Source: an uncultured Bdellovibrionales bacterium (GTDB taxonomy: Bacteria; Patescibacteriota; Minisyncoccia; Moranbacterales; GWC2-37-73). Taken from it: a DNA stretch of 64,000 nt. Shown piece after piece: positions 4,081-22,000 of the stretch. Position numbers and translations under genes: made by a program. The stretch spans positions 54,119 to 118,118 of the forward strand of contig CAZCMV010000001.1 in the NCBI GenBank assembly GCA_964500125.1. The letters run 5' to 3'. The stretch's first letter is position 1. Every line of letters starts with the position of its first letter. Below the pieces are notes generated by a model. The model searched no databases and was not told the origin of the DNA. It worked only from the letters and a program-made list of their open reading frames with translations.

Positions 4081-4101
4081 ATTTTTAATTATTTTGAAAG
4101 C

Positions 4102-4599: not shown

Positions 4600-4786
4600 T
4601 TATTAGATAAATAACCCCGAACTTTATTCCGTGATTGTAAAAAACACTTATTACGAAACAAAAGAACACAAAAGGACTCAGTAATCCCCCCATCTTTGAC
4701 ATTGTACTACTATATCCATTGGCAAACACACTTCTTCCCATAATAATTACAACTATTGCAGAAATAATAATAAATGTTGTGCTCAT
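4556..4786 (-). CDS. small hypothetical membrane protein (76 aa)
   Basis: Two hydrophobic helices. Confidence 0.25.
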   Translation of the reverse strand: MSTTFIIISAIVVIIMGRSVFANGYSSTMSKMGGLLSPFVFFCFVISVFYNHGIKFGVIYLIIGISISSFVAPRRY

Positions 4787-5044
4787 ATTATTTATAGTAT
4801 GTTAATATATTTTGAAAACAAAAAAGGACAACCCTACTAGTTGTCGCACCCAAATAGACAGGTTATGCCTAATTGTTTTAAGTAAGGTTGCCCTATTCTG
4901 GGCACAACCTTACATTTTGCCTATCTGGCAAAATCCTATTTATTTGAATGCGACACCTAAAGAATACTGCATCGGGAGGCAAAAAGCAAACCTCGCATAG
5001 TTTGATTTTGAGCTAAATTTGGAGTAAATTAAAAGTATACAAAT

Positions 5045-5782: not shown

Positions 5783-5956
5783 AATCTTATAACGGCTTAC
5801 ATCGGCTTATAATGGATTGTGGACAACTCTTTCAAGGGTTGTTTTTTTGTTTTTTCTAAGCATTTTTTATAAAATGATAATCCAAAAAAGTAATTAAAAG
5901 TAATTTGCTTTGGGCAAATAATGAAAACATAAGAAATTTAAGTTTAACTCAAGGTT

Positions 5957-6148
5957 ATGTTTTCTGATGCACAAATCAAAAAATTTCAGATTATATACAA
6001 AAACCTCTACGAGGTTGAACTTAATCTTTCGGAAGTATGCGAAAAATTGGAAAGCCTAGTAAGAGTGATTGAGCTTACCTACAAACCAATGACTGAGAAA
6101 GAAATGGAACTGGTAAAAAAAAGACGTAAAGAAATGAAAATAATATGA
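5957..6148 (+). CDS. small hypothetical protein (63 aa), coiled-coil
   Basis: Stop overlaps start of next gene (ATGA coupling at 6145). Confidence 0.3.
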   Translation: MFSDAQIKKFQIIYKNLYEVELNLSEVCEKLESLVRVIELTYKPMTEKEMELVKKRRKEMKII

Positions 6149-6876
6149 GAGAGCCAAAGCACATTAGAAAGATAATACAAAAATCAGCATATGAAATGAC
6201 ACACGGAGGATTTGTTCCCAATTTACCAATAAGAAAAAAAGGCAAACAAAAAAGATTTTTTATTGACAATGAATACTATGAATGGGGCTATGCCAAGAAT
6301 CTTTCAAGGCAAGCCACGCTTGTTTATTTTTTATTGGCTAAATATGCAAATTCAAAAACTCAGGCGTGTTTTCCTGGAATGGATAGAATTGTTAAAGAAG
6401 GAGGAATTTCCAATAATCGGTATGTGTCCAGGGGATTGAAAGAACTTGAAAAATACAACCTGATTTTTGTAAACCGACCTGGAGCAGGAAAGGTAAATAA
6501 TTATTATCTACTGGACACTTCTGTTTGGAAAAAACTTCCTGGTTATGAAAAAGTTTCAATTTCCACAAAATCAAGTGTCAAAATGAACAACCCTGAGAGT
6601 CAAAAAGAACTACCAACCAAGGTCGAATTTGACCCACTAAATCATAGGAGTAATTCAACGGAAGAAATCATCACAAAAAAAGAAAAAACCATAGAAAAAC
6701 CAGAAGCTAAATTCATTTCTTTTTTTAATGCAAATTACAAAGAACAAGATATTTTATTGGCATTAACTGAAATTAACAAAGAAATCAAAGATATAGGATT
6801 TCAAGAAGTCCGATATAAACTCAAACAACTTACAGTGGAAGGAAAAATAAATCCTATAAGAGCACCATCCTGGTAA
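6145..6876 (+). CDS. winged-helix DNA-binding protein, possible element replication initiator/regulator (243 aa)
   Basis: Segment FPGMDRIVKEGGISNNRYVSRGLKELEKYNLIFVNRPG is a typical wHTH of phage/plasmid Rep or DnaD-like N-domains; sits immediately upstream of the recombinase. Confidence 0.5.
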   Translation: MREPKHIRKIIQKSAYEMTHGGFVPNLPIRKKGKQKRFFIDNEYYEWGYAKNLSRQATLVYFLLAKYANSKTQACFPGMDRIVKEGGISNNRYVSRGLKELEKYNLIFVNRPGAGKVNNYYLLDTSVWKKLPGYEKVSISTKSSVKMNNPESQKELPTKVEFDPLNHRSNSTEEIITKKEKTIEKPEAKFISFFNANYKEQDILLALTEINKEIKDIGFQEVRYKLKQLTVEGKINPIRAPSW

Positions 6877-6995
6877 TTCGTTTTCAATGCGAAAAACAAT
6901 AAAAAAATTCCGTTGTAATTTTCACTTTTGCTGAAAATGTATTTAGAGTCTACCTTTTTAGTAAAATTAAATAAGTTAATAAATTATAAAAATAT

Positions 6996-8660
6996 ATGAC
7001 TACAAATAAAACACAGGAAATCAAGTATTTCCTTTATGCGAGAAAATCTTCAGAAAGCGAAGACCGCCAGGTGCAATCAATCGACGACCAGGTTGGCAGA
7101 TTGGAGCGGTTAGCCAAGGAGAGAAACTTTCACATTAAGCACATTTACAAGGAATCAAAATCAGCGAAGAAACCAAACAATCGTCCCCTTTTTGATGAAA
7201 TGATGAAAAGAATTGAAAGCGGAGAGGTGGACGGAATTTTATGCTGGCACCTCAATCGTCTTTCCAGGAATCCGATAGACAGCGGGAAAATAAGCTGGCT
7301 CTTGCAACAAGGAGTTATCAAGTCGATTCAAACGATGGAAAAAGAATTTAGACCCGAAGACAATGTTTTGCTTTTTAGCGTTGAAAGTGGAATGGCAAAT
7401 CAATTTTGCCGAGAATTAAGCGTGAATGTAAAACGAGGCAATCAAAAGAAGCGAGAGGACGGCTGGAGACCTGGAATTGCACCCACAGGTTATTTAAACG
7501 ACCTAGCAACCCACACGATGCCCATAGACCCGTTGCGATTCAGATTGCTTCGCAAAGCGTGGGATTTGATACTTACTGGAAATTACACCGTGCCACAAGT
7601 TGCCGACAAACTTAATAACGAATGGGGATTCCGAACGATAAAGAAAAAACGACTTGGAGACAAGCCATTGGCATTAAGCGGGATGTATAAAATTTTCACC
7701 AATATCTTTTATGCAGGAATAATTGAACACAATGGAGTTCACTATCCAGGAAAACATAAGGCGATGATTACCTTGGATGAATTTGACCGTGCACAAATCA
7801 TACTTGGACACAAAGGGAAACCCAGACCCAAAAAACATCACTTCCCTTTCACAGGATTATTCCGTTGCCCTGAATGCGGTTGTATGTATACCGCTGAATT
7901 GAAAAAAGGGAAATATGTTTATTATCATTGCACACACAAAAATAAAAAAGTTAAATGTTCACAAAGAAAAGTTCTGGAGGAGAAAAAGCTCTTAGAACAA
8001 CTTGAATACGAACTTGGAAAATATACCATACCCCAAGAACTGCTCGCTTTGGCATTGGAAATAATCGAAAGCAGAAAGGAGACCAAAGCAGACGATGAAA
8101 AAATAATAGCCGAGACTCGCCAGCAAACTTTAGAGAAATTGAAAAACCAACAATCAAATCTCATAAGAATGCGAAGCAACGATATGATTGATGATGAACA
8201 ATTCAAAGTCCAAAGCGAACCGATAAAAAAAGAGATTGAGAGATTAAGTAATGAGCCTATGAGTGCCAAAGACCGAAAAGAAAAAACCCTAGAGCTAACT
8301 GAAAAAACTTTTGCCTTTTATGCTTACGCCCACAAAGCGTTTCTGACTGGCAATGATGAAACACGAAGAGAGCTTATATTTCATTTAGGTTCGAACCACG
8401 AAATAAAAGACAGAATAACCTCCATACAAGCCAAAGAATGGTTTTTGCCCGTAGCAAATAAGCGCAATGATATAAAGCGAGAATTTGAAAGGTTAGAACC
8501 GATGAAAAGTGGCTGTATAAAAGCAAAAAGCGGGCAATTAAGCCCACTTCTTAGCACTATGCACGGGGCTATGGACACGACTAGGAACAATATTTTGGAA
8601 AACTGGGACAGGATTGATGTCAGATTACAGCGCGCTCAAGCCTTATTACAGCGAATTTAA
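6996..8660 (+). CDS. large serine recombinase (resolvase/invertase catalytic domain + recombinase domain + zinc ribbon), element 1
   Basis: N-terminus YARKSSESEDRQVQSIDDQ (catalytic Ser motif), CWHLNRLSRN, and C-terminal CxxC...HC zinc ribbon; 554 aa. Confidence 0.85.
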   Translation: MTTNKTQEIKYFLYARKSSESEDRQVQSIDDQVGRLERLAKERNFHIKHIYKESKSAKKPNNRPLFDEMMKRIESGEVDGILCWHLNRLSRNPIDSGKISWLLQQGVIKSIQTMEKEFRPEDNVLLFSVESGMANQFCRELSVNVKRGNQKKREDGWRPGIAPTGYLNDLATHTMPIDPLRFRLLRKAWDLILTGNYTVPQVADKLNNEWGFRTIKKKRLGDKPLALSGMYKIFTNIFYAGIIEHNGVHYPGKHKAMITLDEFDRAQIILGHKGKPRPKKHHFPFTGLFRCPECGCMYTAELKKGKYVYYHCTHKNKKVKCSQRKVLEEKKLLEQLEYELGKYTIPQELLALALEIIESRKETKADDEKIIAETRQQTLEKLKNQQSNLIRMRSNDMIDDEQFKVQSEPIKKEIERLSNEPMSAKDRKEKTLELTEKTFAFYAYAHKAFLTGNDETRRELIFHLGSNHEIKDRITSIQAKEWFLPVANKRNDIKREFERLEPMKSGCIKAKSGQLSPLLSTMHGAMDTTRNNILENWDRIDVRLQRAQALLQRI

Positions 8661-8814
8661 CTCTTGCGCATCTCATTAAATGACAAATATAAATTAGCGA
8701 GTGAATCTAGCCATTCATCAGCCGTTTCACTTGATACATTCAAGTCATGATTTGCCTTGAAATAAGCGATTAATCTAATCCTTAATTCTTCTGAATATTT
8801 ATATTGCATATAGC

Positions 8815-9327
8815 TTATAACTTTTCATGATTAGTTCCACCTTTTAAATCATTACTAATCGCCTGCGCTAATTCTAGAAAGTTTCCACCCACTTGAATAT
8901 GTTGTATGGGCAGACTTATTGCTGAATATAATTCATCCACGAATTGATCACGATTTTTTCGTCTTGGGTCATTGTGTGATTTTCCATCCAATTCAATGGC
9001 AAGCAATGGTTTTGTTGTGGCATGATTGCACACAAGAAAATCAACATGGCGCGATTTGATTTTGCCACGAAGACCCCAATGACCATTACTGGATATATTC
9101 TTCTTGTCCACATCTACAAAGTCCTCAATGCGCACCTTAGACAATACAATATAAGCGTCTCCCAGCGCCTTCTGCAGATTAATGAATAATGCTTGCTCTG
9201 ATTCATTCATCACCCTGTCCTTCTTCTGATATGAAGACAAGCTCGTCAGTCTTTCCTTCTTCTCAATGAATGCCTTAGCAAGAGCAACAGCGACAATGAA
9301 GACGATTAAGATAATTGTCCAAGTCAT
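8815..9327 (-). CDS. DUF2726-family (restriction-endonuclease-like fold) protein with N-terminal TM anchor (170 aa)
   Basis: RHVDFLVCNHATTKPLLAIELDGKSHNDPRRKNRD matches the DUF2726 core (VDF..., ELDG.SH); N-terminal hydrophobic helix. Confidence 0.55.
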   Translation of the reverse strand: MTWTIILIVFIVAVALAKAFIEKKERLTSLSSYQKKDRVMNESEQALFINLQKALGDAYIVLSKVRIEDFVDVDKKNISSNGHWGLRGKIKSRHVDFLVCNHATTKPLLAIELDGKSHNDPRRKNRDQFVDELYSAISLPIQHIQVGGNFLELAQAISNDLKGGTNHEKL

Positions 9328-9413
9328 GGTTTTATTATTATTGAATTATATTTAATGAAACACGAAAACAAATCAACCCCGCTGTTTATCATGCAATAGT
9401 TGAAGAAAAAATA

Positions 9414-10214
9414 TTACTTTCCAGAAACATTATTTTCATAAACAAATACTGCACCATTTTTTTCAACAACATCCTTAACACATCGCATCCTTTCAATGAA
9501 ATTATCATCTGATTCATTTAAACTTTTCTTACAATCGTCACTCCATTTTTCCAACAAAAGAAGCCCTGCATGATGTAAAATTTTTTCAAAATCATCCGAA
9601 GAAAGAATTTGCACTTTATTGTTAATTGCATTAGTAATCTTTTCACTTTCCTTGTCATACAATGGAACTAATCCAATTTTGTTAACAGAGAAGAAATGTG
9701 TCAGTGAATTCCTTAAATCACGCAGATTTTTTGCACTTATTTTTCCTGCTCTTTTTGGGTTCTCCATTATCCACTTATTCTCCCTGCATAGGCAAAATTC
9801 GTTTATAAATTGATCCATCGCACCATCCGAAGCATCTCTGAGTTCCGCACTATCGCTCGTTTTTTTCTGATATGCAGTATGAAGACAACGAAGTGTCTCA
9901 AGATGAGCGAAAAGTACAATAAACTCCGACCTAACAGGACGAGGGAAATGGAACTTATCGGCTAACGTTTCCGGATTTTCAGAGAGTGTAAAGTTTAAAT
10001 CGTCCGGCGGATTCATTTTTGACATAAGAGCCAATAGTTCTCTGCATTGTCTTTTTATATCTTTCAGTCTTTTCTTATAGCCCATTAACTCATTAACTTC
10101 TGCTTCAATCTGAATTAAAAAACGAAAGACAACCCCAAATTCTGGATGAATATCAATTCTGTTTTGAACCTTATCCATAATCACAAATGGCATATTTTCT
10201 ATATTCTTGTTCAT
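9414..10214 (-). CDS. HEPN-motif (RNxxxH) protein (266 aa)
   Basis: NLRDLRNSLTHF contains R-N-x3-H; 4-nt ATGA overlap with upstream gene (translational coupling). Confidence 0.45.
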   Translation of the reverse strand: MNKNIENMPFVIMDKVQNRIDIHPEFGVVFRFLIQIEAEVNELMGYKKRLKDIKRQCRELLALMSKMNPPDDLNFTLSENPETLADKFHFPRPVRSEFIVLFAHLETLRCLHTAYQKKTSDSAELRDASDGAMDQFINEFCLCRENKWIMENPKRAGKISAKNLRDLRNSLTHFFSVNKIGLVPLYDKESEKITNAINNKVQILSSDDFEKILHHAGLLLLEKWSDDCKKSLNESDDNFIERMRCVKDVVEKNGAVFVYENNVSGK

Positions 10215-10828
10215 ATTGAAAAAGTTGTATTTTCAATGGTATCACCGACAATAAGTGAAAAGCTTTTGGTGGATGACACACCATTTTGAGTATTTACAGT
10301 AATTGTTATCTTGTATTTTCCACGCTCAAGTTTATGACTAGGATTTTTCCAGTCATAAACATATGATTCATTATTCCAACCATATGCCTCCTTGTCTTTT
10401 TCGTATTTTGTAATCACATCTAAAAATTCCTGATTACCGGCTAAAATTGTGACAGGATCCGGTTCAAAAAGTCTCAAAATGGCGTTGTCCTTTAAAAATG
10501 GTAGCTCTGGCGTTGACGCCCAGCGCCCCTTGAACGAAAGGTGTGTTTTATTATCAACTCCAGAAATATTTATCATTGCCCTGCAATTTTCAGCAGTTTG
10601 ACGAACAAGCCATGTTAATAAAAATGGCATTCTCTGATTAACGACAGCAACTCTGAAAAATTTCCATCGTTGACCAGAATGAGAACTGCTATTTTGATAA
10701 GTATTATCAGAATGAGCTTCTTCTGTAACTAAAATTTCAATCGCAGGCATCCTCATCCGATCAAACCACAATGCAAGCAAAATTCCAAAAAAAGTTGTAG
10801 CGATCGATAAAATTATATTTTCAAGCAT
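10211..10828 (-). CDS. single-pass membrane protein of unknown function (205 aa)
   Basis: N-terminal TM helix; 2 nt after the MTase stop and overlapping the next gene start. Confidence 0.45.
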   Translation of the reverse strand: MLENIILSIATTFFGILLALWFDRMRMPAIEILVTEEAHSDNTYQNSSSHSGQRWKFFRVAVVNQRMPFLLTWLVRQTAENCRAMINISGVDNKTHLSFKGRWASTPELPFLKDNAILRLFEPDPVTILAGNQEFLDVITKYEKDKEAYGWNNESYVYDWKNPSHKLERGKYKITITVNTQNGVSSTKSFSLIVGDTIENTTFSI

Positions 10829-10830
10829 AT

Positions 10831-13800
10831 TTATTTAATGCAATTATTTACTACCTCAACCTCTTCCATTGTAAGTCCGTAAAATCCAAAGATGAGCTTA
10901 TCAATTTGTAATTCAAATTCTCTAATATCGGAGCCATCATTCTCCCTCTTAATATCTAAAATGCGCTCGACAATACTTATAACTTCTTCCTGTTCTTTTT
11001 TATTGCCAATAAAAATAGGTATTTCAATAATTGGATCCTTGTCAATTTGATAATTATTACCCTGCATCTTTCCTTTATTGTGAAGCCAAAAAGCAATTAG
11101 TTTAGAATTCAATATTCCAGTTAAATACTTTTGATTAATTCTACTTGTTTTTATAGAAAAAAATGCCCTAGAAACATAACAAGGAAAATCCGTGTAGGTA
11201 AATGTTGGACATGCACATTTTCTAACGGACATTATTTTTTCTCCTTGAAAAAAAGATTCTTTCCTTGGTCTATTTAAACCATAAGGTCCATTCTCAGATG
11301 TAATAATATCCTTAAATTTATCTAGATGCTTTTTTACCTCAGGATAATCATTGATTTTATCAGCTTTTTTAAATGATGAATCCGTATAGATGATCCAGAA
11401 CTTATTTTTTTTATTTCCAAAAATACCCTTTAATTCTTTTGTTGTATAATATGGTTTTAATAATTTATTTTCTTTTTCTGACAACTTAATGTTTTCTTTT
11501 TCATTATTTGAAAGAACAAATATACCATCTCCTATTTTAAAATTATTGCCAATTTCTTTTAAGGATTTTTTATTTACAAAATCCTGAAGAACATCAATTC
11601 CAGACATTAACTCACTTTTACCATCAATGAAAAACTTACCCTTTTCTGAAATCTTATTCAATATATTATTATCCTGAAGACTGCTAAAGACAAAGGTTTT
11701 ATTCTCGAAATAAGAACGATTGAAATTAGGATTAAGGTAGCAAAACTTATCATCCTTAACTTTATTTAATATTTTATTTACACAATTCAATGAAATTTTA
11801 TCATCAATTATTTTTCTATAATCAAATTGATACTCATTTAAACTATTATTTCGCTGAAGCAACATTATCATTGTTTGAATATCAGCACTTTCAAAAATTT
11901 TATAATTACCAAAATCAATAAAAGAAATCATTTTGGCATCTTTTGCGATCTTTAATCTAAGCTTAGAGGCCCCCGCATTTGTAACCCAATTATTAGAAGC
12001 AATAAAAGCAAGCACGCCAGTATTGGTCTTAAGTAAATCAATGAAAGTACAGGCAAAAAGATACCACAAATCCATTTTCCCTTGATAATACTGACTTTCA
12101 CGAAGTCCATCGAAAGCAGATTTATCTGTATGCTCTTTAATATAAGGTGGGTTCCCAATAACTACATCAAAACCACCCTTCTCTCTGAAAACGTCACTAA
12201 ACTCAAGCTTCCAAATAAAAAATGGACGGATATTCTTACGCCTAAGTTCTTTTATTTCCTCAAGCTTTTCCGTTTTACCCTGTTCTGCCAGTGTAATCTC
12301 AATCAGTTCCCACTTTAAATTATCAATCTCTTCTTTCAATTCTTGCTTATGTGTTCTTCGTGATTCACTTATGTATTGTTCAATTTTATTATGCAGAAGC
12401 TTAGTTTTCTCTTCTGCAATTCTCCTTTTTTCTGGAATTCCAAAAAGATTATTACTACTCGTATCAGAATTTTCAGATCCCTTGGAAAATAATTTAAGTC
12501 TTGATTGTAATGATTTTATTTCCCTCTCAATTTCCATCTTTCTAATTACTGTCAACTTGCCCTTATAATGCAGATCAAAATACTCCCGTTGAAATTTAGA
12601 AATTTCATCATTGACTTCTACTTTTTCTTTTTCTAAAGATTGCGCACTTTCAAGTATTGAATCATCAAATAATTTAATGCCTTCATATTCGGAAATAAGA
12701 CTATTACCTTGCATTATTTTATGCTCGAGATTTGGCAAGGGGTGCGGAATGTTTTCATCAACAACCAATGACAGCCAGAGGCGAAGCTTAGCGATTTCAA
12801 CCGCACCAGGATCAAGATCAACACCATAAATGGAATGGGAGATAGTGTGAAGTTTTAATTCATAATCAGAAATATTATCATCAAGATATATATTTAAGAC
12901 CTTTCTAGCTCTAACTATCTCATTAATCATGCCAAGCGGAAATGCGCCCGAACCAACAGCAGGATCAGCAATTTTTATATTTTCTAAGAGCTGATCTAAC
13001 AAAATTGCTTTTGATCTAATAGAGCCAGGCAGAAGTAATTCATATTTACCTCTATATTCAAAACCGCTAATTTCCTTTTCCCTTATCTTTTCTAGAGCAA
13101 CTTTGTCATTATCAATGATTCTATCTCCCCTACGTATAAGCAACTCTAAATCCTGCCTTGCAATATCAGTGCCGACTTCAGCTTCCAAATAGTTAATAAG
13201 ACTTTCTTGGCACATATAATGTACAATTTCACGAGGAGTGTAAAAAGCGCCCTTGCTTTTTCTATCTTTGATATCAAGCAAGTTTTCAAAAACTTTTCCA
13301 AGCATTTCAGGATCAACCGCAACCTCTTTTTCTAAAGGCTCATTTTCATTTACAGTAAAATTATATCTATCAAAAATATCAAAAATACCATCTCCGATAT
13401 CCCCTTCTTTGGTTCTATTATTATTAGAAAAAAGATCGTCAGGAAGAACAATGTTGGTGGTTTCCCATTTATATCCATTCATTGGTTCAAATAATCCACC
13501 ATTTAAAAATGGCATCCTGCAATTATTTAATCTAGGATAAATCGATTCCTTGCCACGATCTTGTGCAAGAGCTTCGTAAAATAATGGCTCCAAAACATCA
13601 TTAAAGAAATTTTTACCATATTTTTTTCGGCGTTCGAATAGTTCGCGTATGAATTTCTTAGGTCCCTCGCCCCATTTTTTTTCAGGCGAAACACCAAACC
13701 AGCCTTTTTTTTGTAAAAAATAAAGGAAGACAATTTGCCCTAAAGTTTTTTTTGCAAAATCAACCGTTGAAATTTCCTTTTCTTCAAATTCTTTTTTTAT

Positions 13801-14445
13801 CTTTTCATCATTAAGAAGAACAGCATCCAAACATTCCTTGAGATGAAAATATAACTCGGTATATTTACTAAAAAATTCTTTTGTTATTACTTCAATATCA
13901 AAAGCAAGTTCCAATTCTGAAAGATTTGGATTTTCATTACTTATAAGCAGATTCATAAATCTACTTTGTGCTGTATGACTACCTTCATTTTCACCAACCA
14001 AAAATGACCATCTCCGAGCAGGGGTTATTTCTGCCTTGGTTTTTAATTTTTCATTTACAACCTCCAAGGAATGTTCCAATTTTACAAGTGAAAGACGCCA
14101 ATCTCTATTTCCAGGAGAAACAAACGCTACCAAAGCTGCTTCCTTGTTATTTGTCTTAAGATACTCGGCTACAAAATTTCGTTGAGCTGTTCTAGCTCTC
14201 TCAAGAGTTGAATTTTTGTTAAGAGCAACTTCCAATATGTCTATTTTATTCCCAAAGCAATCCTCAAAATATCCAATTACCTTATATTTAAGAATAAATG
14301 GAAGAAATGAATGTTTTATGATCGGCTCAAAACCACTCGACTTATACTCCTTAAAAAGATTTCTAACGAAAAGTAGGAAGTTATTTTCATCAAACTTATC
14401 ATTAAACGCAGATGCAATAATTTTTTTTGCTTCTTCCTTTGTCAT
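10831..14445 (-). CDS. gamma-class N6-adenine DNA methyltransferase, Eco57I/PglX/DrmMI-like (1204 aa); possibly a Type IIG R-M fusion
   Basis: GAFYTPREIV (motif X), DPAVGSGAFPLG (SAM motif I), VVIGNPPYIKEH (NPPY motif IV); long C-terminal TRD-like region; ~170-aa N-terminal domain of unclear function. Confidence 0.85.
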   Translation of the reverse strand: MTKEEAKKIIASAFNDKFDENNFLLFVRNLFKEYKSSGFEPIIKHSFLPFILKYKVIGYFEDCFGNKIDILEVALNKNSTLERARTAQRNFVAEYLKTNNKEAALVAFVSPGNRDWRLSLVKLEHSLEVVNEKLKTKAEITPARRWSFLVGENEGSHTAQSRFMNLLISNENPNLSELELAFDIEVITKEFFSKYTELYFHLKECLDAVLLNDEKIKKEFEEKEISTVDFAKKTLGQIVFLYFLQKKGWFGVSPEKKWGEGPKKFIRELFERRKKYGKNFFNDVLEPLFYEALAQDRGKESIYPRLNNCRMPFLNGGLFEPMNGYKWETTNIVLPDDLFSNNNRTKEGDIGDGIFDIFDRYNFTVNENEPLEKEVAVDPEMLGKVFENLLDIKDRKSKGAFYTPREIVHYMCQESLINYLEAEVGTDIARQDLELLIRRGDRIIDNDKVALEKIREKEISGFEYRGKYELLLPGSIRSKAILLDQLLENIKIADPAVGSGAFPLGMINEIVRARKVLNIYLDDNISDYELKLHTISHSIYGVDLDPGAVEIAKLRLWLSLVVDENIPHPLPNLEHKIMQGNSLISEYEGIKLFDDSILESAQSLEKEKVEVNDEISKFQREYFDLHYKGKLTVIRKMEIEREIKSLQSRLKLFSKGSENSDTSSNNLFGIPEKRRIAEEKTKLLHNKIEQYISESRRTHKQELKEEIDNLKWELIEITLAEQGKTEKLEEIKELRRKNIRPFFIWKLEFSDVFREKGGFDVVIGNPPYIKEHTDKSAFDGLRESQYYQGKMDLWYLFACTFIDLLKTNTGVLAFIASNNWVTNAGASKLRLKIAKDAKMISFIDFGNYKIFESADIQTMIMLLQRNNSLNEYQFDYRKIIDDKISLNCVNKILNKVKDDKFCYLNPNFNRSYFENKTFVFSSLQDNNILNKISEKGKFFIDGKSELMSGIDVLQDFVNKKSLKEIGNNFKIGDGIFVLSNNEKENIKLSEKENKLLKPYYTTKELKGIFGNKKNKFWIIYTDSSFKKADKINDYPEVKKHLDKFKDIITSENGPYGLNRPRKESFFQGEKIMSVRKCACPTFTYTDFPCYVSRAFFSIKTSRINQKYLTGILNSKLIAFWLHNKGKMQGNNYQIDKDPIIEIPIFIGNKKEQEEVISIVERILDIKRENDGSDIREFELQIDKLIFGFYGLTMEEVEVVNNCIK

Positions 14446-14447
14446 AT

Positions 14448-17400
14448 CTAGTTGATATTAAAATATTCAGAAAGTATAATCTCCTTTTTTGCAGATACAC
14501 CATCATTTTGCTCGTTTTGATTTGGCATCAAGAAATCAGCAGGAAGAGTGGTTTTTAAGATTGCCAGAAGTTTAATTGGGTTCGCAATAATTTCTGGCAT
14601 TTCCTGAATTTTATTATAAATTGTTTGAGATATTTTCTTTGGAATTCCACCAGTGTTAAGCTCCTCAATAACTTGTCTAATATAAGATTCATCATCCTCT
14701 GTAAAGCCCTTAAAATTTCTAATTTCTTTTGCGCTCAAAAGCTTGTGAAGACGTGCGGCATTATCCCTACTTCCACGCTTAGATGAAAATTCTTCCTCCT
14801 CATTCTCGCCAACATTTTTCAACATTTCCAAATTCTTATCAAGCAATTCATAGAATAGTTTATCTTGTTTGTTTTTTTTCTCATCTGGCTGAGCCGATAG
14901 TGTTTTTGCCGCTTCCGTAAAATCAATCTCGGAAGAAACTGAGACTGCACCATTTTCCACAATGAAAAACTTTTGTAATTTTCCTTTTCTGAAATATGTT
15001 AGTAATTTAACAATACTATCTTTTGATTCACGAACTGTTCTTGCCTTCTTTGGAAGTCTTTTTATTTTTTCAAATAATTCAGGATTTTCATCCCTTATCC
15101 TTCTGATCTCTTGCAAATACCCAAGCTCACTTTCTCCCTCATCCATCTCACCCTCAATCATTTCTTTTGATAAGATTTGACTGAAAAGGCTGTGCCCTTC
15201 TGGGACTTCACTTTCAGTTAGAAGTTTTGCGTCAGCACCAAGCAATGTGATGAATGCTTGAATTTTAGCTTCTGCCATTTCTTTTAATTTAATCTGCTCA
15301 TTTGATTGGTCTGTTGGAAAAAAAGTATATGTATAAATTTTGTCATGTTTTGCATCGACTCTGTTTATGCGACCGACTCGTTGCATTATACGTGTAGGAT
15401 TCCATGGAATATCATAATTTATAACGACATTCGCCTGATGTAAATTAGCACCTTCAGACAAAACATCTGTTGTTATCAGAAGCGTGAAATCATTCTTAAT
15501 ATTTTTTGCATTTGCATCAAAATTCTCCATCACTATTTCTCGTTCCGCCTGTGAACTCTCTCCTGAAAAATACAGGATTTTATCTGGAAAAATATCTTGC
15601 AAATTCTTCACCAAATATTGTGCTGTTTCTTTTGATTCGGTAAATATTATAGACTTTCCAATTTTTACAGGCTCCTCAATGGCAAGCTTTTCCTTAAATG
15701 CTATGATTTTAGGATCGCGATCGATACCTTTCCATAATTCCTGAATATCTTTCAGGATATTCAAATCATTATTAAGATCAACAATAAAGTTTTCATTAAA
15801 TTCATCACTAGAAAATTTCTCCGCTTTGCCATTCGCAATAAGCTGATCAATAGCATCCAAATTATCGTTCTCTAAATAATCAAATATTTTTTGAATATTT
15901 TTTTTGCTCACATATACATTGCCAGAATTGAACTCATTTATAAATTTTTCATATGACGCAACAAAGCGATTTATCGATTGACTAAATGCAAAAAAACTAC
16001 TTTCTAATCTTTTAATCAAAAGCATTCTCATGAATTTCATCATGTTCTTTTGTTGTTGCTCCTCTGAACTCAAAAGCCCCTTATGATAAAGTAACGGCGT
16101 ATAGCGAGAATACTTGAAATCATTGGTTATAATCTTAATTGTCTCAAAAAAAACATTGTCTTCTTTTTCATTGAATTCATAAAAAATCGGCTCTGGATTG
16201 GCAATTTCAGGAAAACTCATTTTTTGTTTTTTCAAATCATCTCCGTAATATTTTGTGATTTCCGTTCTGGTGCGTCTAACCATTAAATATTTCAATACGC
16301 GCTCTCTAATCAATTTAGAGTTTTCTTTTGTAATGGAAATATATTCTTGTTTATCTTTTTGCCTGTCGAGCCCTTTAAGTTTTTTCTCTAAATTCTTAAA
16401 AAACCCCTCAAGATCAGGAAGACTTGGAATTGTACTTTTTCTTGAGCGCTGAAAAAGTTTAATCTGTGCTAACAAATCAGATGGCGAATTATTATATGGT
16501 GTAGCTGTCACCAAGATAACTTTTTTGCCCCTGCAAATCTGCGCAAGCTTTGCATAGGTATCAGTTTCCTCTGTTCTGAATCGATGCGCTTCATCAATAA
16601 GAACAACATCAAAATCCTTCTGCAAGTCCTTTTTTATTATCTTATCCAAAATCCCAATCGACATGCATTTGTAATCTTTTGCTCGAAATCCAAAATTGCG
16701 AAAAGCGTTTTCCCAGCTTCCCTCATTGCTCTCGCTAATCAAGTGTGGTGGCGCCAAAACCAATGTCCTGCCCTTTAACTCCTGACAAAGCATTGTGCCC
16801 ATGAAGGTTTTACCAAGACCCACAACATCCGAAAGAAAAACACCACCATATTCCTCCACAATTTTTCGAGCGTTAATAACAGCATGATCCTGATATTTTA
16901 ACTCCTTAAAATTGTGCGGACGGAAATTGTGCTCCAATGATTGGCTCTCATTAATCTCTTCCTTAAAATATTCATACAGAAATTTTAGATAGAGCTCGTA
17001 TGGAGTGATATCTTCGCGAAGCCATGTATCTTTTTTTATCGTTTCTAGATATTTTTCACTCACATCAACTCCTTTTTCCCATAACTCTTCAAATTTAGAC
17101 TTGGCAAATTCATAATCAGAAGGATTCTTAAGCTCAACATTAAATTCCAAATTATCCACCAAGCCACTTTGTGTAAAATTGCTTGAGCCAGTAATAACAC
17201 GACCAAGATCCCGATCATCTTCATCGAATGTCATTATGTACAATTTGGAATGAATCTTTTCTTCAGGATAAGCTCGGATTTCTAATTTATCACTAGACAG
17301 CCATTCAATAAATTTCAACACCCCTTCTTCTACTTTTACATTGTTTTCACAATCTTCCATTTCTTTTTTTACCTCCTCACCAATCTGTTCTCCTATTTCC

Positions 17401-17687
17401 TTGTGTGATTGAATTTTTTGAAGCAAATCATAAGTCTGATGATTAGTGCTAATTCCAATCAGAATTCTTATTTTTTCAGTTTTTTCCAAACTAGGATAAA
17501 TAGCATAAAAACCGCTTGTATAAAAATAACCAACCAAGACATCAAAAAAACGTGTGTCTTTAATTAAAACTCTGAAACGATCAGCAAGATTATTGTTTTT
17601 TTCATTGGTTAAAAATGTAAGATCTGTATTCATGTTTTTATTGAAAATAGAAAAATTATAAATCAGTCCATTTAAATTCAAAGGCAA
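14448..17687 (-). CDS. PLD(HKD)-family nuclease fused to SNF2-family helicase (1079 aa)
   Basis: N-terminal PLD: YFYTSGFY..., HSKLYIMTFD (HxKx4D), GSSNFTQSG. Helicase: GLGKT (motif I), VLIDEAHRFR (DEAH), C-terminal QRVGRINR (motif VI). Confidence 0.85.
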   Translation of the reverse strand: MPLNLNGLIYNFSIFNKNMNTDLTFLTNEKNNNLADRFRVLIKDTRFFDVLVGYFYTSGFYAIYPSLEKTEKIRILIGISTNHQTYDLLQKIQSHKEIGEQIGEEVKKEMEDCENNVKVEEGVLKFIEWLSSDKLEIRAYPEEKIHSKLYIMTFDEDDRDLGRVITGSSNFTQSGLVDNLEFNVELKNPSDYEFAKSKFEELWEKGVDVSEKYLETIKKDTWLREDITPYELYLKFLYEYFKEEINESQSLEHNFRPHNFKELKYQDHAVINARKIVEEYGGVFLSDVVGLGKTFMGTMLCQELKGRTLVLAPPHLISESNEGSWENAFRNFGFRAKDYKCMSIGILDKIIKKDLQKDFDVVLIDEAHRFRTEETDTYAKLAQICRGKKVILVTATPYNNSPSDLLAQIKLFQRSRKSTIPSLPDLEGFFKNLEKKLKGLDRQKDKQEYISITKENSKLIRERVLKYLMVRRTRTEITKYYGDDLKKQKMSFPEIANPEPIFYEFNEKEDNVFFETIKIITNDFKYSRYTPLLYHKGLLSSEEQQQKNMMKFMRMLLIKRLESSFFAFSQSINRFVASYEKFINEFNSGNVYVSKKNIQKIFDYLENDNLDAIDQLIANGKAEKFSSDEFNENFIVDLNNDLNILKDIQELWKGIDRDPKIIAFKEKLAIEEPVKIGKSIIFTESKETAQYLVKNLQDIFPDKILYFSGESSQAEREIVMENFDANAKNIKNDFTLLITTDVLSEGANLHQANVVINYDIPWNPTRIMQRVGRINRVDAKHDKIYTYTFFPTDQSNEQIKLKEMAEAKIQAFITLLGADAKLLTESEVPEGHSLFSQILSKEMIEGEMDEGESELGYLQEIRRIRDENPELFEKIKRLPKKARTVRESKDSIVKLLTYFRKGKLQKFFIVENGAVSVSSEIDFTEAAKTLSAQPDEKKNKQDKLFYELLDKNLEMLKNVGENEEEEFSSKRGSRDNAARLHKLLSAKEIRNFKGFTEDDESYIRQVIEELNTGGIPKKISQTIYNKIQEMPEIIANPIKLLAILKTTLPADFLMPNQNEQNDGVSAKKEIILSEYFNIN

Positions 17688-17814
17688 TGCCTATTGATTA
17701 AGGCAAATTTTGGCTTTGTTTCAAGTTTTTCCGTGCTTTAATGGTATCACTAAGTCAGCATTTATTCAAGCTATTTGACAAGAATCGCCACTTGTATATT
17801 ATTGAGGTAAGAAA

Positions 17815-18028
17815 AAGGTTACCCTGCACCGGACTCGAACTAGGAATTCGGAAAAGTCTATGGCAGGGAGTGTTTCCTCGGAGCAAGAGAAAAAAGAATT
17901 GCTCCTGTAATGCGCAGATTGCCAATGCTGCCGGGACACTTTAAGGCACAGTCAAGATCCCTCTTTATGATGTGGTTTTGTATGTGCTCAGATTCTTTTT
18001 CAAGAACCGCATCATATGCGGTTTTTTT
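17815..18028 (+). ncRNA. candidate small RNA ending in an intrinsic terminator; contains a tRNA T-arm-like fragment
   Basis: GC-enriched, non-coding; ggactcgaac (T-loop-like) at 17828-17840; hairpin ggagcaa-N12-ttgctcc at 17878-17905; terminator aaccgcatcatatgcggttttttt at 18005-18028. This orientation would be divergent from the defence operon promoter. Confidence 0.25.
18005..18028 (+). terminator. rho-independent terminator
   Basis: 8-bp GC-containing stem aaccgcat/atgcggtt, 3-nt loop, followed by T7. Confidence 0.5.
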
Positions 18029-18055
18029 GTCGTGAAAAATAAAAATCAAACAAAA

Positions 18056-18232
18056 ATGCAATCCCAATTCAGCCCAGCATTAATAGCCAAGTGCCAAAAA
18101 GTGATCTTCCAGAAATCAGGCAAAAAAATCAGCAAAGCGAAAGCCGAGCTGTATCTGGAAAAATTCGCGCGATATTTCATGCTGGCCGTGAAAGTTTTGG
18201 ATCAAGAAGCAAAAACTAAAAAATTAAAATAA
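18056..18232 (+). CDS. small hypothetical protein (58 aa)
   Basis: ATG at 18056 in frame with listed ORF; lysine-rich C-terminus. Confidence 0.3.
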   Translation: MQSQFSPALIAKCQKVIFQKSGKKISKAKAELYLEKFARYFMLAVKVLDQEAKTKKLK

Positions 18233-18239
18233 AAATCCA

Positions 18240-18515
18240 ATGGCAAAAATCATTAAAATTGACGAAATATCCCAAATTAAACTCCTTTCTGGCAATATAA
18301 TGCTTCAGCATTTGAAAAAATCTAAAACTGGACGAATAGCGTGGGTTACAGACGGCAATTTTTCCACATGGGCATCAACGTGTGAGTTCTACATTTTTCA
18401 GGCACCATACCGCACCATTGAAGGCACAGCGCAAATTGAGAGACTAATCGAAGTCGTGATAAGGTCGACCGACCAGATCAGTCAGGTTTTAATAGATAAC
18501 AATTTAAACAATTAA
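18240..18515 (+). CDS. small hypothetical protein (91 aa)
   Basis: ORF immediately following previous small ORF; same strand. Confidence 0.35.
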   Translation: MAKIIKIDEISQIKLLSGNIMLQHLKKSKTGRIAWVTDGNFSTWASTCEFYIFQAPYRTIEGTAQIERLIEVVIRSTDQISQVLIDNNLNN

Positions 18516-18527
18516 TAACAAAACAGT

Positions 18528-18710
18528 ATGACTGATGAAAAAGCTGAAAAATTCCCTGATGGAATCTGTCCGTTCATGAGCACACCGGAAAATCCGGTAC
18601 CATGTAGCGGAATATGCCAACTTCACAGAAAAGGCAAAAAAGGTTTTGCCTGTCCATGGCATGATCTTGCCATTATTGCCTGGAATTTGAAACCCGAAAA
18701 CAGACGCTAA
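18528..18710 (+). CDS. small cysteine-rich (zinc-ribbon-like) protein (60 aa)
   Basis: CPF...PCSGICQLH...CPWH gives 5 Cys/2 His spaced like a zinc-binding knuckle. Confidence 0.35.
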   Translation: MTDEKAEKFPDGICPFMSTPENPVPCSGICQLHRKGKKGFACPWHDLAIIAWNLKPENRR

Positions 18711-18720
18711 AGCGTGACGG

Positions 18721-18970
18721 TTTCGAAAAAGAAAGGCGCCCCAAAGAAAAACACTATATATACAAAATGCATCCATGTTCAAGAATTGAACTTTCGAAAA
18801 GAAACGATGTACATATAACCATATATTATATATACATTATGTTCCCATGTTCAAGAATTGAACCTTCGATGAGAAAAGATGTATATATAAACATTCAATA
18901 TATATAAATAGCCACCCCATATATATTTTTTGTTTTTTTCCATGTAAGGGCGCCGAACTTTTTCGAAGGT
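18721..18970. repeat. AT-rich cassette: two ~70-bp direct repeats, each with a TTCAAGAATTGAA palindrome, flanked by ~20-bp imperfect inverted repeats (GGCGCC...CTTTTTCGAA)
   Basis: Direct repeats at 18771-18844 and 18845-18910; left flank tttcgaaaaagaaaggcgcc (18721-18740) and right flank gggcgccgaactttttcgaa (18948-18968) are reverse complements with 3 mismatches. Confidence 0.5.
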
Positions 18971-19099
18971 TTAAAAAAAACGGAATTCATTAAAAGATTT
19001 AAAAGAAAAATAAAAATGCATCTGAAATCTGACAAAATCGCGCGATAAGTGCTACAAGCTAGACAGGATTTGTTTTATGGCTCAAAGAAGCCATTATTC

Positions 19100-19900
19100 A
19101 AACACTAACTGGTGAGCCTGATTAAGAGAGCAATTTTCCGCCAGCCCGCACCCGCAACGAACCGCAGACTTCAGCAAATTCACAAAACCAAACAGAGGCG
19201 CAGTTGAGCATTTTGAGAGTTGCTGTCACGCATTCCAAAAAGAAATTTTCTGAGCAGGTGCCTTGTTTTTCTCTTGGCGACCACGGGAGCACAAGAGCAA
19301 AAAACAAGAGCATCAGCGGAGGGAAATTTCGTCGTGACAGCAACGGTCAAGAAAAAGGAGCGGAAAGATTGTGCTTGGAGGACGATTAAGTCCGACAAGC
19401 TTTCATTATCCGCGACCACCTTTGACACGATTGAGAAGCGAACCACCAGCGTTGATTGCAATGAGAGGGAGAGCGAACGACCGTCCCTGCAGAGCGACCA
19501 CTTCTTTTGAAGTCGTTGCAGTCTCAAGCCCCTCAAGACTGAGGGGTTGGGGGTGTTGAAAGTCCAAGCGAGAAAAGAAAAGAGTGTCTGACAATGCTGC
19601 ATTCTTGCGACATTCCAAGCTGTCAAAAATGACGCCGAGGGAACGCAGAAGGAAATTTTTGAAACAGCTTGTGCCAATGTCGCAAAATGTCACATTGTCA
19701 GAGGGTGAGAAACACCTTCCTTCAGAATGTTAAATCGTCAAAGTGTTTCTCAATCCCCTTGCACCTTTTCTTTTCAACTCCTTGAGGGATTGGAGTTTGA
19801 GGAAAACCGCAGTGGTTTTCTCTCATTTTTAAAGAGTTTTTTCAAAATCTATAAAAATAGTGCGGTGAGAAACATTTTTCTATTCGAAAAGAATTGAAAC
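19100..19900. other. GC-rich (~50%) non-coding island; candidate large structured RNA or decayed foreign DNA
   Basis: No convincing ORF on any frame (overlapping low-complexity ORFs on both strands); perfect hairpins e.g. cccctca-agac-tgagggg (19531-19548); long-range complement tgcgacatt (19606)/aatgtcgca (19677); motif ggtgagaaaca twice (19705, 19867). Confidence 0.3.
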
Positions 19901-19935
19901 TTGCCTGTCTGATTTTTCCGGTAATCCGGAAAATA

Positions 19936-20337
19936 TCAGTCTGGCAAGTTCTCCTCTGTGTATTTATATTTTCGAATAGAAAAATGTTTCTGACCGCTTT
20001 CCTTAATGATTGATTTTGAAAAGACCTCCGCTTTGTATTTAAAGAGTTTGGCGAGAATTAAGACTGCTTTTTCGGAAAAATCTTTGCCGAGCCAACTCCC
20101 TATTTGGAGCCGTAGAAGCACGGAAAGTATCACTAGAAATAAATAAAATACTATGATATTATTGATGTGGACACAACTAAAATACTCATCGAAGACAGAA
20201 AGGGCAACCTTTGCTGCAATCTTCGATGAGAAGTTGTGTCCAAAGCGGGGTTGTCCTTTTTGTTTTGCAAAAAATATGAATCTTCTGGACACAATTTCTT
20301 TATCAAATAGCGGAATGGCCAGCGCAGGCGAGCTCAT
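19936..20337 (-). CDS. hypothetical membrane-associated protein (133 aa)
   Basis: ORF divergent from recombinase 2; one hydrophobic helix. Confidence 0.3.
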   Translation of the reverse strand: MSSPALAIPLFDKEIVSRRFIFFAKQKGQPRFGHNFSSKIAAKVALSVFDEYFSCVHINNIIVFYLFLVILSVLLRLQIGSWLGKDFSEKAVLILAKLFKYKAEVFSKSIIKESGQKHFSIRKYKYTEENLPD

Positions 20338-20399
20338 CTTGTTTTTCGGTGTGATCGCACTAATGATTTTTGACGAAATAATTTCTAAAAATAAATAAT

Positions 20400-21989
20400 A
20401 TGAAATACGTCATTTATGCCCGAAAATCAACCGAGAGCGAAGACCGCCAAGCGCTCTCAATTCAATCTCAAATCTTTGAGATGAAAGAAGTCGCCAAGCG
20501 CGAACATCTTAAAATTGTTGAGGTTCTGGAAGAATCCAAATCCGCCAAACAACCCGGCCGACCGATTTTCAATGATATGATTAAGAAATTCAAAAGCGGA
20601 AAATATGAAGGAATTCTCTGTTGGAAAATAGACCGACTCGCCAGAAATTCACTCGACGCAGGAATGGTGCAATGGCTTTTGGAAAAAGGAACAATCAAGC
20701 AAATAAAAACCTTTGAGCGCGATTATAATCCAAGCGACAACGTCGTGATGGCCAGCATTGAGTTTTCAATGGCCAACCAATATGTCCGCGACCTTTCCAA
20801 GAATGTGAAGCGTGGACAGGCGGAAAAGATTCGTCGTGGCGAATATCCTGCCACTCCCCCAGTCGGATATCTCATCGATTATAAAACCAAGAAAATATAC
20901 ATCGACGAAGATAAATGGCATCACATCAAAAAAGCTTTCCAGCTTTATGCGACTGGAAATTATTCAATTCCAAAACTGGCCGAGAAACTTTCAAAGGAAG
21001 GTTTTCGCTCACGCAATGGCCGACCAGTCCACGGATCCGGAATATACCAAGTTCTCAATAATCCTATTTATTACGGATGGTTTCGTTGGAATGACCAAAT
21101 CTATAAAGGAATTCATGCTCCGATGATTTCCAAGGATTTGTTTGATGCGGTGCAAGAAGTTTTTCATCCAAGAAAGCACACAGTTGAACGCAACGTTCAC
21201 AATTTTGTTTTTCGTGGGCACTTGGTTTGTGGAGAATGTGGATTGAAAATAACTGCAGAAACTCAAAAAGGTCATGTGTATTATCACTGCACAAAATCAA
21301 AAGGCGTGGACAAATGTTCACAGAAATATTTGCGCGAGGAAGATTTGATCACAGAAATCGACAGCCGTTTGGCAAAACTAAAAATTGACGAGGATGTGCT
21401 CGACCTTATGATTGAAGCATCAAGAGAATTGAGCAAGCATGAATGGAACGACATCCGCGAAATAGAAAAGAAACATCAAGCACTTCTGGACAATAATAAA
21501 TTCAGACAGGACTCACTCATTGAAAAGTACATCAGCAATGTCATTCCGGATGAGCACTACAATCGCAAATTGGCAGAGCTTCGCAATGAAGAAGCGGACA
21601 TCGAAGACAATCTGCGAAGCACCAAGGAGAATTTTCACAATGTTTTTGAGAAGATTGAATTGGCTGCGAGATTCGCCAAATTTGCCAAAAAGATCTTTGG
21701 GCGTGGCGATTTAGAAATCAAAAAAGAAGTTGTGGCAATCCTGACTTCGAACATTATCATAAAAGACAAGCAAATAAAGGAATTTCGCCTCGCTGAGCCA
21801 TTCGCCAGCGTGATGAAAGATGTTGAAATCACAAAGGGAAAAGGCAACGGAAAATCCAGTATCGAACTTGGCAGTTTTGCTTTATCTAAAACTAAAACAG
21901 CCCCCAAAAGGGAGGCTGTTTCACTTATGCACGGGGTGAGGGAATCGAACCCCCGCCAAAAGTTTTGGAGACTCTCGTTCTGCCACTAA
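20400..21989 (+). CDS. large serine recombinase, element 2 (paralogue of 6996-8660)
   Basis: YARKSTESEDRQALSIQSQ catalytic motif, CWKIDRLARN, zinc ribbon CGECG...HC; about 45-50% identical to recombinase 1 over the N-terminal 170 aa; 3' end reads through the tRNA-Trp 3' half (…HGVRESNPRQ…). Confidence 0.85.
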   Translation: MKYVIYARKSTESEDRQALSIQSQIFEMKEVAKREHLKIVEVLEESKSAKQPGRPIFNDMIKKFKSGKYEGILCWKIDRLARNSLDAGMVQWLLEKGTIKQIKTFERDYNPSDNVVMASIEFSMANQYVRDLSKNVKRGQAEKIRRGEYPATPPVGYLIDYKTKKIYIDEDKWHHIKKAFQLYATGNYSIPKLAEKLSKEGFRSRNGRPVHGSGIYQVLNNPIYYGWFRWNDQIYKGIHAPMISKDLFDAVQEVFHPRKHTVERNVHNFVFRGHLVCGECGLKITAETQKGHVYYHCTKSKGVDKCSQKYLREEDLITEIDSRLAKLKIDEDVLDLMIEASRELSKHEWNDIREIEKKHQALLDNNKFRQDSLIEKYISNVIPDEHYNRKLAELRNEEADIEDNLRSTKENFHNVFEKIELAARFAKFAKKIFGRGDLEIKKEVVAILTSNIIIKDKQIKEFRLAEPFASVMKDVEITKGKGNGKSSIELGSFALSKTKTAPKREAVSLMHGVRESNPRQKFWRLSFCH

Positions 21990-22000
21990 ACTAACCCCGC
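21930..22000 (-). tRNA. tRNA-Trp(CCA)
   Basis: Reverse complement folds as cloverleaf: acceptor GCGGGGT/ACCCCGT (G1-U72), anticodon stem AGAGT/ACTTT with loop CUCCAAA, T-arm GGGGG-TTCGATT-CCCTC, discriminator G. Confidence 0.75.

Follow-up and report, generated by a model that had tools for sequence, protein, structure and literature searches.

Do five tightly packed genes in a defense island act as one system, or is only part of the cluster a functional unit? The question is raised by a stretch of 64,000 nucleotides from an uncultured Bdellovibrionales bacterium (contig CAZCMV010000001.1, positions 54,119 to 118,118; the whole stretch is referred to here as the window), in which an initial annotation had read five adjacent minus-strand genes as a single, undescribed DISARM-like defense system. 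An open reading frame (ORF) listing of the window reproduced all five ORFs at the coordinates, on the strand, and with the spacings that had been given for them. A gap of 2 nt separates p1 from p2 (14448/14445) and p2 from p3 (10831/10828), p3 and p4 overlap by 4 nt (10214/10211), and 86 nt lie between p4 and the DUF2726 gene, p5. The five genes are as follows.

14448 to 17633, minus strand: p1, an HKD (PLD) nuclease fused to an SNF2-type ATPase; 1061 amino acids (aa) from the ATG, with an ORF reaching back to TTG 17687 (Pfam, invariant motifs, and PADLOC)
10831 to 14445, minus strand: p2, a gamma-class N6-adenine methylase with an Eco57I/TaqI_C-type specificity domain and a family-specific 380-aa N-terminal region; 1204 aa (Pfam and PADLOC)
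10211 to 10828, minus strand: p3, an N-terminal membrane helix with an Ig-like beta-sandwich, outside the conserved pair; 205 aa
9414 to 10214, minus strand: p4, a helical protein with an invariant R-(N)-x3-H motif, probably HEPN, outside the conserved pair; 266 aa
8815 to 9327, minus strand: p5, a DUF2726 protein (PD-(D/E)xK type) with a hydrophobic N-terminus, stand-alone cargo; 170 aa (Pfam)

The conserved functional unit among these genes is the p1-p2 pair (10831 to 17633, minus strand). The reading that we favor, with a probability of about 0.7, is that p1 and p2 form a two-gene, ATP-dependent restriction-modification-type system, that p3 to p5 are separately mobile guests, and that all five are cargo of a serine-recombinase island. 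The pair emerged from a comparison of related loci. The p1 alignment was scanned over one genome per species by means of two short peptide patterns, which gave 531 stretches with relatives; the co-occurrence counts for p1 refer to the best 80 of these 531 stretches, all from different species and 53-79% identical to p1. These loci span the Campylobacterota, Bdellovibrionota, Proteobacteria, Patescibacteria, Chloroflexota, Nitrospirota, Bacteroidota, Planctomycetota, and others. In 73 of the 80 loci, tblastn placed a p2 homolog downstream of p1 and on its strand. Among the seven loci that did not yield p2, the contig stops within ~0.6 kb past p1 in six; in L060, the remaining 1.5 kb after p1 is occupied by an inserted Schlafen-type gene. 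One locus, L053, showed p2 only as a divergent C-terminal match. The three other genes of the cluster were found in none of the 80 loci (tblastn for all three and also hidden Markov models for p3 and p4). When 952 neighboring proteins were clustered, p1 and p2 were the only conserved families, and the next most frequent neighbor, a Schlafen AlbA_2/HATPase_c_4 protein, was present in 11 loci. Because of this pairing, the absence of p3 to p5, and the lack of any other recurrent family, it is the two-gene pair, and not the five-gene arrangement for which the initial annotation had called for a search, that is conserved in other genomes. The adjacency of p1 and p2 persists even at ~30% identity, on Parabacteroides, Prevotella, cyanobacterial, and Lactococcus plasmids and in the metagenome locus L110.

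The junction between p1 and p2 is an insertion hot spot, with one or two genes between them in approximately a quarter of the loci (~20 loci). The inserts encode Schlafen AlbA_2+HATPase_c_4 proteins (11 loci), DUF6922+AbiEii (4 loci), and Bro-N (3 loci), as well as ORF6N, Fic, RhuM, KilA-N, and small pairs of toxin-antitoxin size. Genes like these are typically embedded in Type I restriction operons.

The first member of the pair, p1, is a fusion of a PLD nuclease and an SNF2 helicase, as it had been annotated. It matches the Pfam families PLDc_2 (2.7e-10), ResIII/SNF2-rel_dom, Helicase_C (4.8e-22), and, for the N-terminal PLD domain, RE_NgoFVII (1.1e-05). The translation carries HSK...GSSNFT, GLGKT, and DEAH; the H128-x-K130 (HKD), GSSN, Walker A GLGKT, and DEAH motifs are invariant in the p1 alignment (13 homologs; p1 aligned with 12). 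The best PADLOC match is "HKD+Snf2" (4.6e-51). The annotated length of 1079 aa holds for an ORF that begins at TTG 17687. Homologs are ~1054-1085 aa long (mostly 1059-1064), and an identical database protein (P0001) has 1061 aa and starts at ATG 17633; thus, this ATG is the likely start. Across very distant phyla (e.g., Sulfurimonas, Patescibacteria, Bacteroidales, and Chloroflexota), p1 remains 53-79% identical, and it is far more conserved than the specificity domain of its partner. Such conservation between distant phyla points to frequent horizontal transfer of the pair.

The second member, p2, matches the Pfam families Eco57I (2.2e-33), N6_Mtase, TaqI_C, and MmeI_Mtase. As annotated, its translation contains the FYTP, DPAVGSGAF, and NPPY motifs of a gamma-class adenine methylase, and FxTP, DPAxGSGAF, and NPPY are invariant in the family. 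The PADLOC model REase_MTase_IIG (PDLC03596) matches p2 over its full length (2.9e-206), and p2 combines a gamma-class N6-adenine methylase and a specificity domain in one large polypeptide, as Type IIG enzymes do. Identity to relatives is 48% in the N-terminal 175 residues, 63% in the helical region, and 58% in the first methylase lobe, and it falls to 22% in the hypervariable specificity domain. Such a profile is expected when sequence recognition diversifies but the surface that meets a partner is conserved. A large family is defined by the N-terminal 380 residues, with matches in 2913 representatives of 50%-identity clusters; among the 150 matches listed, all 150 are themselves N-terminal, mostly in proteins of 1000-1300 aa.

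The core pair had been seen before, and the idea that this combination of genes was undescribed does not stand. Plasmid pLd8 of Lactococcus lactis carries orf33 and orf34, described in 2018, which encode a protein with PLD, SNF2, and Helicase_C domains beside a large Eco57I/TaqI_C-type methylase listed in REBASE as Type IIG (PMC6098607). Its authors proposed in silico that the PLD protein supplies restriction, and they likened the pair to class 1 DISARM (PMC6098607). The same helicase-methylase adjacency has been recorded among loci with programmed inversions (PMC9881135). A related case is Pin17FIII of Prevotella intermedia, a Type IIG protein with an SNF2/RAD54 helicase upstream, which gave N6-methyladenine at GGYGAB in Escherichia coli (PMC5608340). 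The window pair belongs with pLd8 orf33/orf34 by its domains (Pfam) and by the adjacency found in 73 of 80 loci, and our view of which protein restricts is likewise that of the pLd8 authors. The Lactococcus methylase is nevertheless a distant relative of p2 (~35% identity, over residues 230-598 only), and other plasmid relatives of p1 are ~30% identical. On pJM1F, a "DEAD/DEAH box helicase family protein" precedes an N-6 DNA methylase that matches p2. The pJM1F and Pin17FIII loci lie on mobile elements, as does the pair described here; the pJM1F helicase and the Prevotella SNF2/RAD54 helicase were compared with p1 by description. The activity demonstrated among pLd8, pJM1F, and Pin17FIII is methylation, by Pin17FIII.

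In the pJM1F locus (L173; Lactococcus cremoris), the pair is followed at 8580-10047 by an inverted TaqI-like specificity-domain gene and an Mpi-family invertase, which suggests that this pair has phase-variable specificity.

How might the two proteins work together? We propose that p2 would recognize a short, probably asymmetric sequence via its variable C-terminal specificity domain and would N6-methylate adenine in host DNA, while at unmodified sites it would recruit or license p1. With one HKD motif per chain, p1 would need to dimerize to form a PLD active site, and the dimer would then move along DNA by its SNF2-type motor and cut. Viewed in this way, the pair would be a Type ISP enzyme split over two chains, or a MANTIS or DISARM system cut down to a methylase and a PLD-helicase. 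Which subunit cuts, how p1 is recruited, and a role in defense are what we infer here; p1 is more likely to be the restriction subunit, because p2 has an obligate partner that keeps an intact HKD site. The variable specificity domain, the guest genes at the junction, and the invertase and spare specificity-domain gene of pJM1F are all traits of restriction systems. The fused PLD-SNF2 protein and the large gamma-class adenine methylase also support the part of the initial annotation that proposed a methylation-based module for self/non-self discrimination. PADLOC returned no system name for the pair beyond the separate p1 and p2 matches.

Among known systems, MANTIS (Gao_RL, BREX-related type 2) is the best mechanistic model for p1. 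Its MtsD protein is, like p1, a fusion of an N-terminal HKD/PLD domain and an SF2 helicase-like ATPase. MtsD is a dimeric PLD-SF2 effector with methylase-dependent targeting and one shared PLD site; MANTIS hemimethylates asymmetric 6-bp sites, and SauUSI is a structural neighbor of MtsD (bioRxiv 10.64898/2026.09.23.753747). However, MANTIS needs MtsA, a DUF499 AAA+ ATPase, and the small coregulator MtsB, and no counterparts of these were found in the window or recurring in the 80 related loci. MtsC is also a different N6-adenine methylase, whereas p2 is of the Eco57I type and has its own specificity domain.

The likeness to DISARM holds at the level of domains and does not extend beyond it. 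Class 1 DISARM (DrmD, DrmMI, DrmA, DrmB, and DrmC) shares with the pair an SNF2 helicase, a large gamma-class adenine methylase, and a PLD nuclease, the first two seen as partial DrmD and DrmMI matches, respectively, but PLD and SNF2 are fused in p1. Neither a DrmA/YprA helicase nor DrmB (DUF1998) was found in the flanking ORFs of >=80 aa (Pfam and NCBIfam) or in the 80 related loci. These flanking ORFs encode only recombinases, an HTH_36 protein, and proteins of no known family. The NCBIfam models DISARM_DrmD and DrmD_b scored 132.5 bits (cutoff, 610) and 81.6 bits (cutoff, 950), respectively. The PADLOC check suggested by the initial annotation did return partial DISARM matches, but the best matches were "HKD+Snf2" for p1 and REase_MTase_IIG for p2, with DrmMI on p2 partial (1.4e-31) and far below the latter. 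The BREX_1_MTaseX model gave 94.6 bits on p2 (cutoff, 500), well short of a PglX assignment, and PglZ and BrxC were found neither in the window flanks nor in the 80 related loci, so membership in BREX fails. The lack of DrmA, DrmB, and BREX partners thus agrees with the initial annotation, and neighbor clustering over the 80 loci gave no recurring DrmA, DUF1998, PglZ, or BrxC-like family near p1.

Two further assignments were considered and rejected: ARMADA (including ARMADA II, which needs a DrmAB-like ArmC) and the BREX-related (BR) systems, because the YprA/DUF1998 or DUF499 components on which they depend are lacking.

Type ISP enzymes such as LlaGI and LlaBIII bring together four functions (nuclease, SF2 translocase, gamma-class adenine methylase, and specificity domain) and act at asymmetric sites by ATP-driven translocation. 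The same four functions are present in p1 and p2, there in one chain and here over two polypeptides, although the Type ISP nuclease is Mrr-type rather than PLD and the p1 motor is SNF2-like. SauUSI and CglI/NgoAVII resemble p1 in joining a PLD-family nuclease to an ATP-hydrolyzing SF2 motor. SauUSI is a single modification-dependent protein, unlike the pair, and in CglI/NgoAVII, the R protein is separate and the methylase is a C5 enzyme; neither SauUSI nor CglI/NgoAVII is paired with an Eco57I-type adenine methylase, as p1 is.

What, then, are p3, p4, and p5? Neither p3 nor p4 matches a Pfam family at threshold. The hydrophobic N-terminus of p3 is conserved over 26 family members, and residues 2-25 form a helix in the AlphaFold2 model, in agreement with the membrane segment that had been annotated. 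The p4 family is small (25 proteins). Its LR(N)xLTHFF motif has an invariant R168 and H173 and a nearly invariant N169 (24 sequences, 31-72% identical to the window protein), which conforms to the Rx4-6H motif of HEPN proteins and bears out the R-N-x3-H signature noted earlier. The remaining evidence for HEPN is weak but consistent. HEPN_Swt1 and HEPN_Apea are the only Pfam families matched repeatedly by the p4 family (7 of 24 members, below threshold), and the AlphaFold2 model is confident (pLDDT 84) but gave no significant match to the PDB by Foldseek. An hhalign comparison of the p4 family with the HEPN_AbiU2 protein elsewhere in the window revealed no relationship. On balance, p4 is probably a HEPN RNase. 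The annotation of p5 as a DUF2726 protein (PF10881) is secure (1e-26; 93.6 bits against a gathering cutoff of 24.7), and its translation carries a D...ELDGK motif.

The relatives of these three proteins keep varied company. One p4 relative follows a reverse transcriptase and a Cas4-like gene, one follows a 438-aa gene of no known family, and one follows an AAA_15/21 ATPase and a 291-aa gene of no known family, with an Eco57I system upstream. In locus L006, p4 and p3 relatives lie together downstream of a Type I-like system. L006 and L175 are syntenic (HsdR-like gene, small gene, fused methylase-S gene, small genes, p3, and NUDIX); p4 is present in L006 and absent in L175, which indicates a simple insertion or deletion of p4. 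Elsewhere, the neighbors of p3 and of p4 include unrelated restriction systems (Type I-like, Type III-like, and Eco57I-type), but the two genes occur together only once. Counts for p3 were made in 80 metagenome loci carrying a p3 relative: p4 is present in none of them, the p1-p2 pair is present in one (L110), and the neighbors of p3 match 131 Pfam families in 127 proteins. The L110 locus (L110:1161-9815) encodes a PLD-SNF2 protein (31% identical), a methylase (32%), and a p3 relative (51%) that overlaps the end of the p2 homolog by 4 nt, followed by a DUF3800 protein and a 161-aa protein of no known family. It is the only other p1-p2-p3 arrangement found. On 77 plasmids, mostly conjugative ones, relatives of p5 occur as lone genes annotated "DUF2726 domain-containing protein." Because of the varied settings of p4, the diversity of p3 neighbors, and the stand-alone p5 relatives, we conclude that p3, p4, and p5 are separable mobile guest modules, of the kind that accumulates in or after restriction operons, and not required partners of the pair. 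Judged by position, they are probably cotranscribed with it here.

Several points weigh against reading the locus as an autonomous pair with unrelated guests. The tight spacing from p2 through p4 (a 2-nt gap and a 4-nt overlap) argues for coexpression, and the p3 relative that follows the distant pair in L110 may reflect some functional link of p3 to such systems. The N-terminal ~175-aa domain of p2 sits where Type IIG enzymes carry their nuclease and could be a noncanonical one. When the literature was searched for a system, named or tested, that contains this pair, only in silico mentions turned up, none of them showing restriction or phage defense by experiment, and a promoter and terminator scan of the 8.5-18.5 kb region gave counts at chance level and was uninformative.

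The alternative that survives best, although we consider it unlikely, is a softer form of coupling, in which p1 and p2 would be an autonomous core and p3 and p4 (perhaps also p5) would provide a backup layer in this locus, e.g., abortive infection when restriction is blocked, much like the HEPN and nuclease effectors that have been suggested as auxiliaries of BREX-related loci. Such a layer would fit the geometry, which suggests cotranscription of p2, p3, and p4, as well as the reappearance of p3 and p4 together after a different restriction system in L006 and the position of the p4 relatives examined, which are near or downstream of restriction or defense genes. Moreover, stand-alone HEPN modules are recurrently attached to BREX and BREX-related loci (PMC12839542). 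Yet neither p3 nor p4 has a conserved partner, the p3 neighborhood is broad (131 Pfam families in 127 proteins), and the association may be plain colocation in defense islands. We retain the autonomous pair as the preferred reading. It is quite unlikely that coupling goes further, with the pair as an unnamed class of ATP-dependent restriction-modification, a minimal two-gene system related to DISARM and MANTIS whose Type IIG-like methylase would directly load a dimeric PLD-SNF2 nuclease, and with p3 and p4 (membrane beta-sandwich and HEPN) as a coupled second line.

A different division of labor would make p2 a self-sufficient Type IIG enzyme with a cryptic N-terminal nuclease and p1 an accessory or second-line nuclease-motor; we regard this as very unlikely. 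In Type IIG enzymes such as BpuSI and MmeI, the order is N-terminal nuclease, helical region, methylase, and specificity domain, and p2 follows it with an alpha/beta-looking domain of ~175 aa in first place. This domain is conserved, with invariant D69, R117, S119, R145, and T158, of which D69, R117, and R145 speak for this reading, and the full-length REase_MTase_IIG match points the same way. The initial annotation had itself named a canonical N-terminal endonuclease in p2, with the helicase part of an unrelated neighboring system, as a finding that would overturn its proposal, and we detected no such nuclease by Pfam, PDB-profile, or hhalign searches. Pfam scans of 37 N-termini of the p2 family gave no nuclease family and only weak MmeI_hel matches, in 3 of the 37; a profile search against PDB sequences found no relative of residues 1-480 outside the FxTP motif; and in an hhalign comparison with a bona fide Eco57I-type Type IIG enzyme, only residues 322-425 aligned, leaving no Eco57I-type N-terminal homology. 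In a phmmer search of p2 against PDB sequences, the matches were confined to CamA-type and BseCI methylases, with no Type ISP enzyme among them, and the family alignment of the N-terminal domain contains no invariant (D/E)xK triad. The near-obligate pairing of p2 with an intact-HKD protein would also be hard to explain if p2 were self-sufficient. As for the PADLOC label, it follows the REBASE convention, which is one of size and domains, and the "Type IIG" label was formerly applied as well to BREX PglX, whose present listing is that of a methylase (PMC12707154). In the pLd8 study, no restriction domain was seen in the equivalent protein. The pair in which p1 cuts remains our preferred reading.

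Finally, the idea from which we started, that all five genes are one integrated DISARM-like system in which the HEPN, DUF2726, and membrane proteins would serve the core as its own effectors, is highly improbable: it draws on the tight packing of the genes on one strand, their confinement to one island in which the recombinase is the only other recognizable function, the plausibility of p4 and p5 as nucleases, and the p3 relative directly after the distant pair in L110, but it is already largely refuted by the co-occurrence counts (p3, p4, or p5 in 0 of 80 p1 loci; p1 and p2 in 1 of 80 and p4 in 0 of 80 p3 loci), and it is at odds with the placement of p4 relatives beside varied unrelated systems, with the p4-less L175 that shares the context of L006, and with a GC content that differs from gene to gene, from 0.31 (p2) to 0.39 (p5), against ~0.37 for the remaining window.

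The five genes nevertheless share an island, whose boundaries are given by the following features.

20400 to 21989, plus strand: large serine recombinase of the island, labeled recA here (Pfam Resolvase, Recombinase, and Zn_ribbon_recom; NCBIfam CcrB and XisF below threshold)
21929 to 22000, minus strand: tRNA-Trp, overlapped in antisense by the 3' end of the recombinase gene
21926 to 21936, no strand: right copy of the 11-nt direct repeat TATGCACGGGG, overlapping the tRNA-Trp 3' end
8558 to 8568, no strand: left copy of the 11-nt direct repeat TATGCACGGGG, putative left junction of the island, inside the 3' end of a second recombinase gene

The island is ~13.4 kb long (~8569 to 21925); it comprises p5 to p1, a 2.7-kb ORF-poor stretch, and the recombinase by which it would be moved, and it is inserted at the 3' end of tRNA-Trp, as the direct repeat there supports and as the initial annotation had proposed for a tRNA gene. 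The repeat TATGCACGGGG occurs twice in the 64 kb (chance mean, 0.40), with no third copy of <=1 mismatch in the window. Both copies are located within the 3' ends of serine recombinase genes, each with a hairpin just to its left, and the two recombinases (20400 to 21989 and 6996 to 8660) are 37% identical to each other. This arrangement is consistent with a tandem insertion of two elements at tRNA-Trp, similar to that of SCC cassettes. The recombinase ORF of the island enters tRNA-Trp by 61 nt on the opposite strand (21929 to 21989) and crosses the hairpin after the tRNA (~21888 to 21915); its last residues are probably read-through from integration.

The second mobile element lies directly to the left (window positions 1 to 8568), with its own large serine recombinase at 6996 to 8660 and its left end outside the window. 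It also encodes an HTH_36 protein that resembles phage replication initiators (6145 to 6876) and the HEPN_AbiU2 protein mentioned above (1338 to 1985; Pfam, 1.8e-07). The 2.7-kb stretch within the island (17688 to 20399) contains no convincing ORF and no Rfam family; the one Rfam match in the 17.6-20.45 kb region, to a miRNA family on a long hairpin, was rejected as spurious. Two tandem 72-nt repeats, 81% alike, occupy 18755 to 18898 of this stretch, and a 29-nt inverted repeat, whose arms are 97% complementary and separated by 78 nt, lies at 19862 to 19997, just upstream of the recombinase gene. Housekeeping genes for EF-Ts, ribosomal protein S2, and an M50 protease are found to the right of the tRNA cluster.

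Collectively, these data show that tight packing on one strand of a defense island does not make a system and that co-occurrence must be examined. Judging from sequence, the locus contributes one more example of a restriction-modification-type gene pair that is widespread and had been noticed before, with a biochemical role that is predicted. It is very common, with relatives of p1 in 531 stretches and the p2 N-terminal region in 2913 cluster representatives. Testing p1 and p2 directly would put a large set of "Type IIG" annotations on a firm footing, and it would reveal whether a methylase is sufficient to load a PLD-helicase effector or whether additional ATPases are required, as they are in MANTIS.

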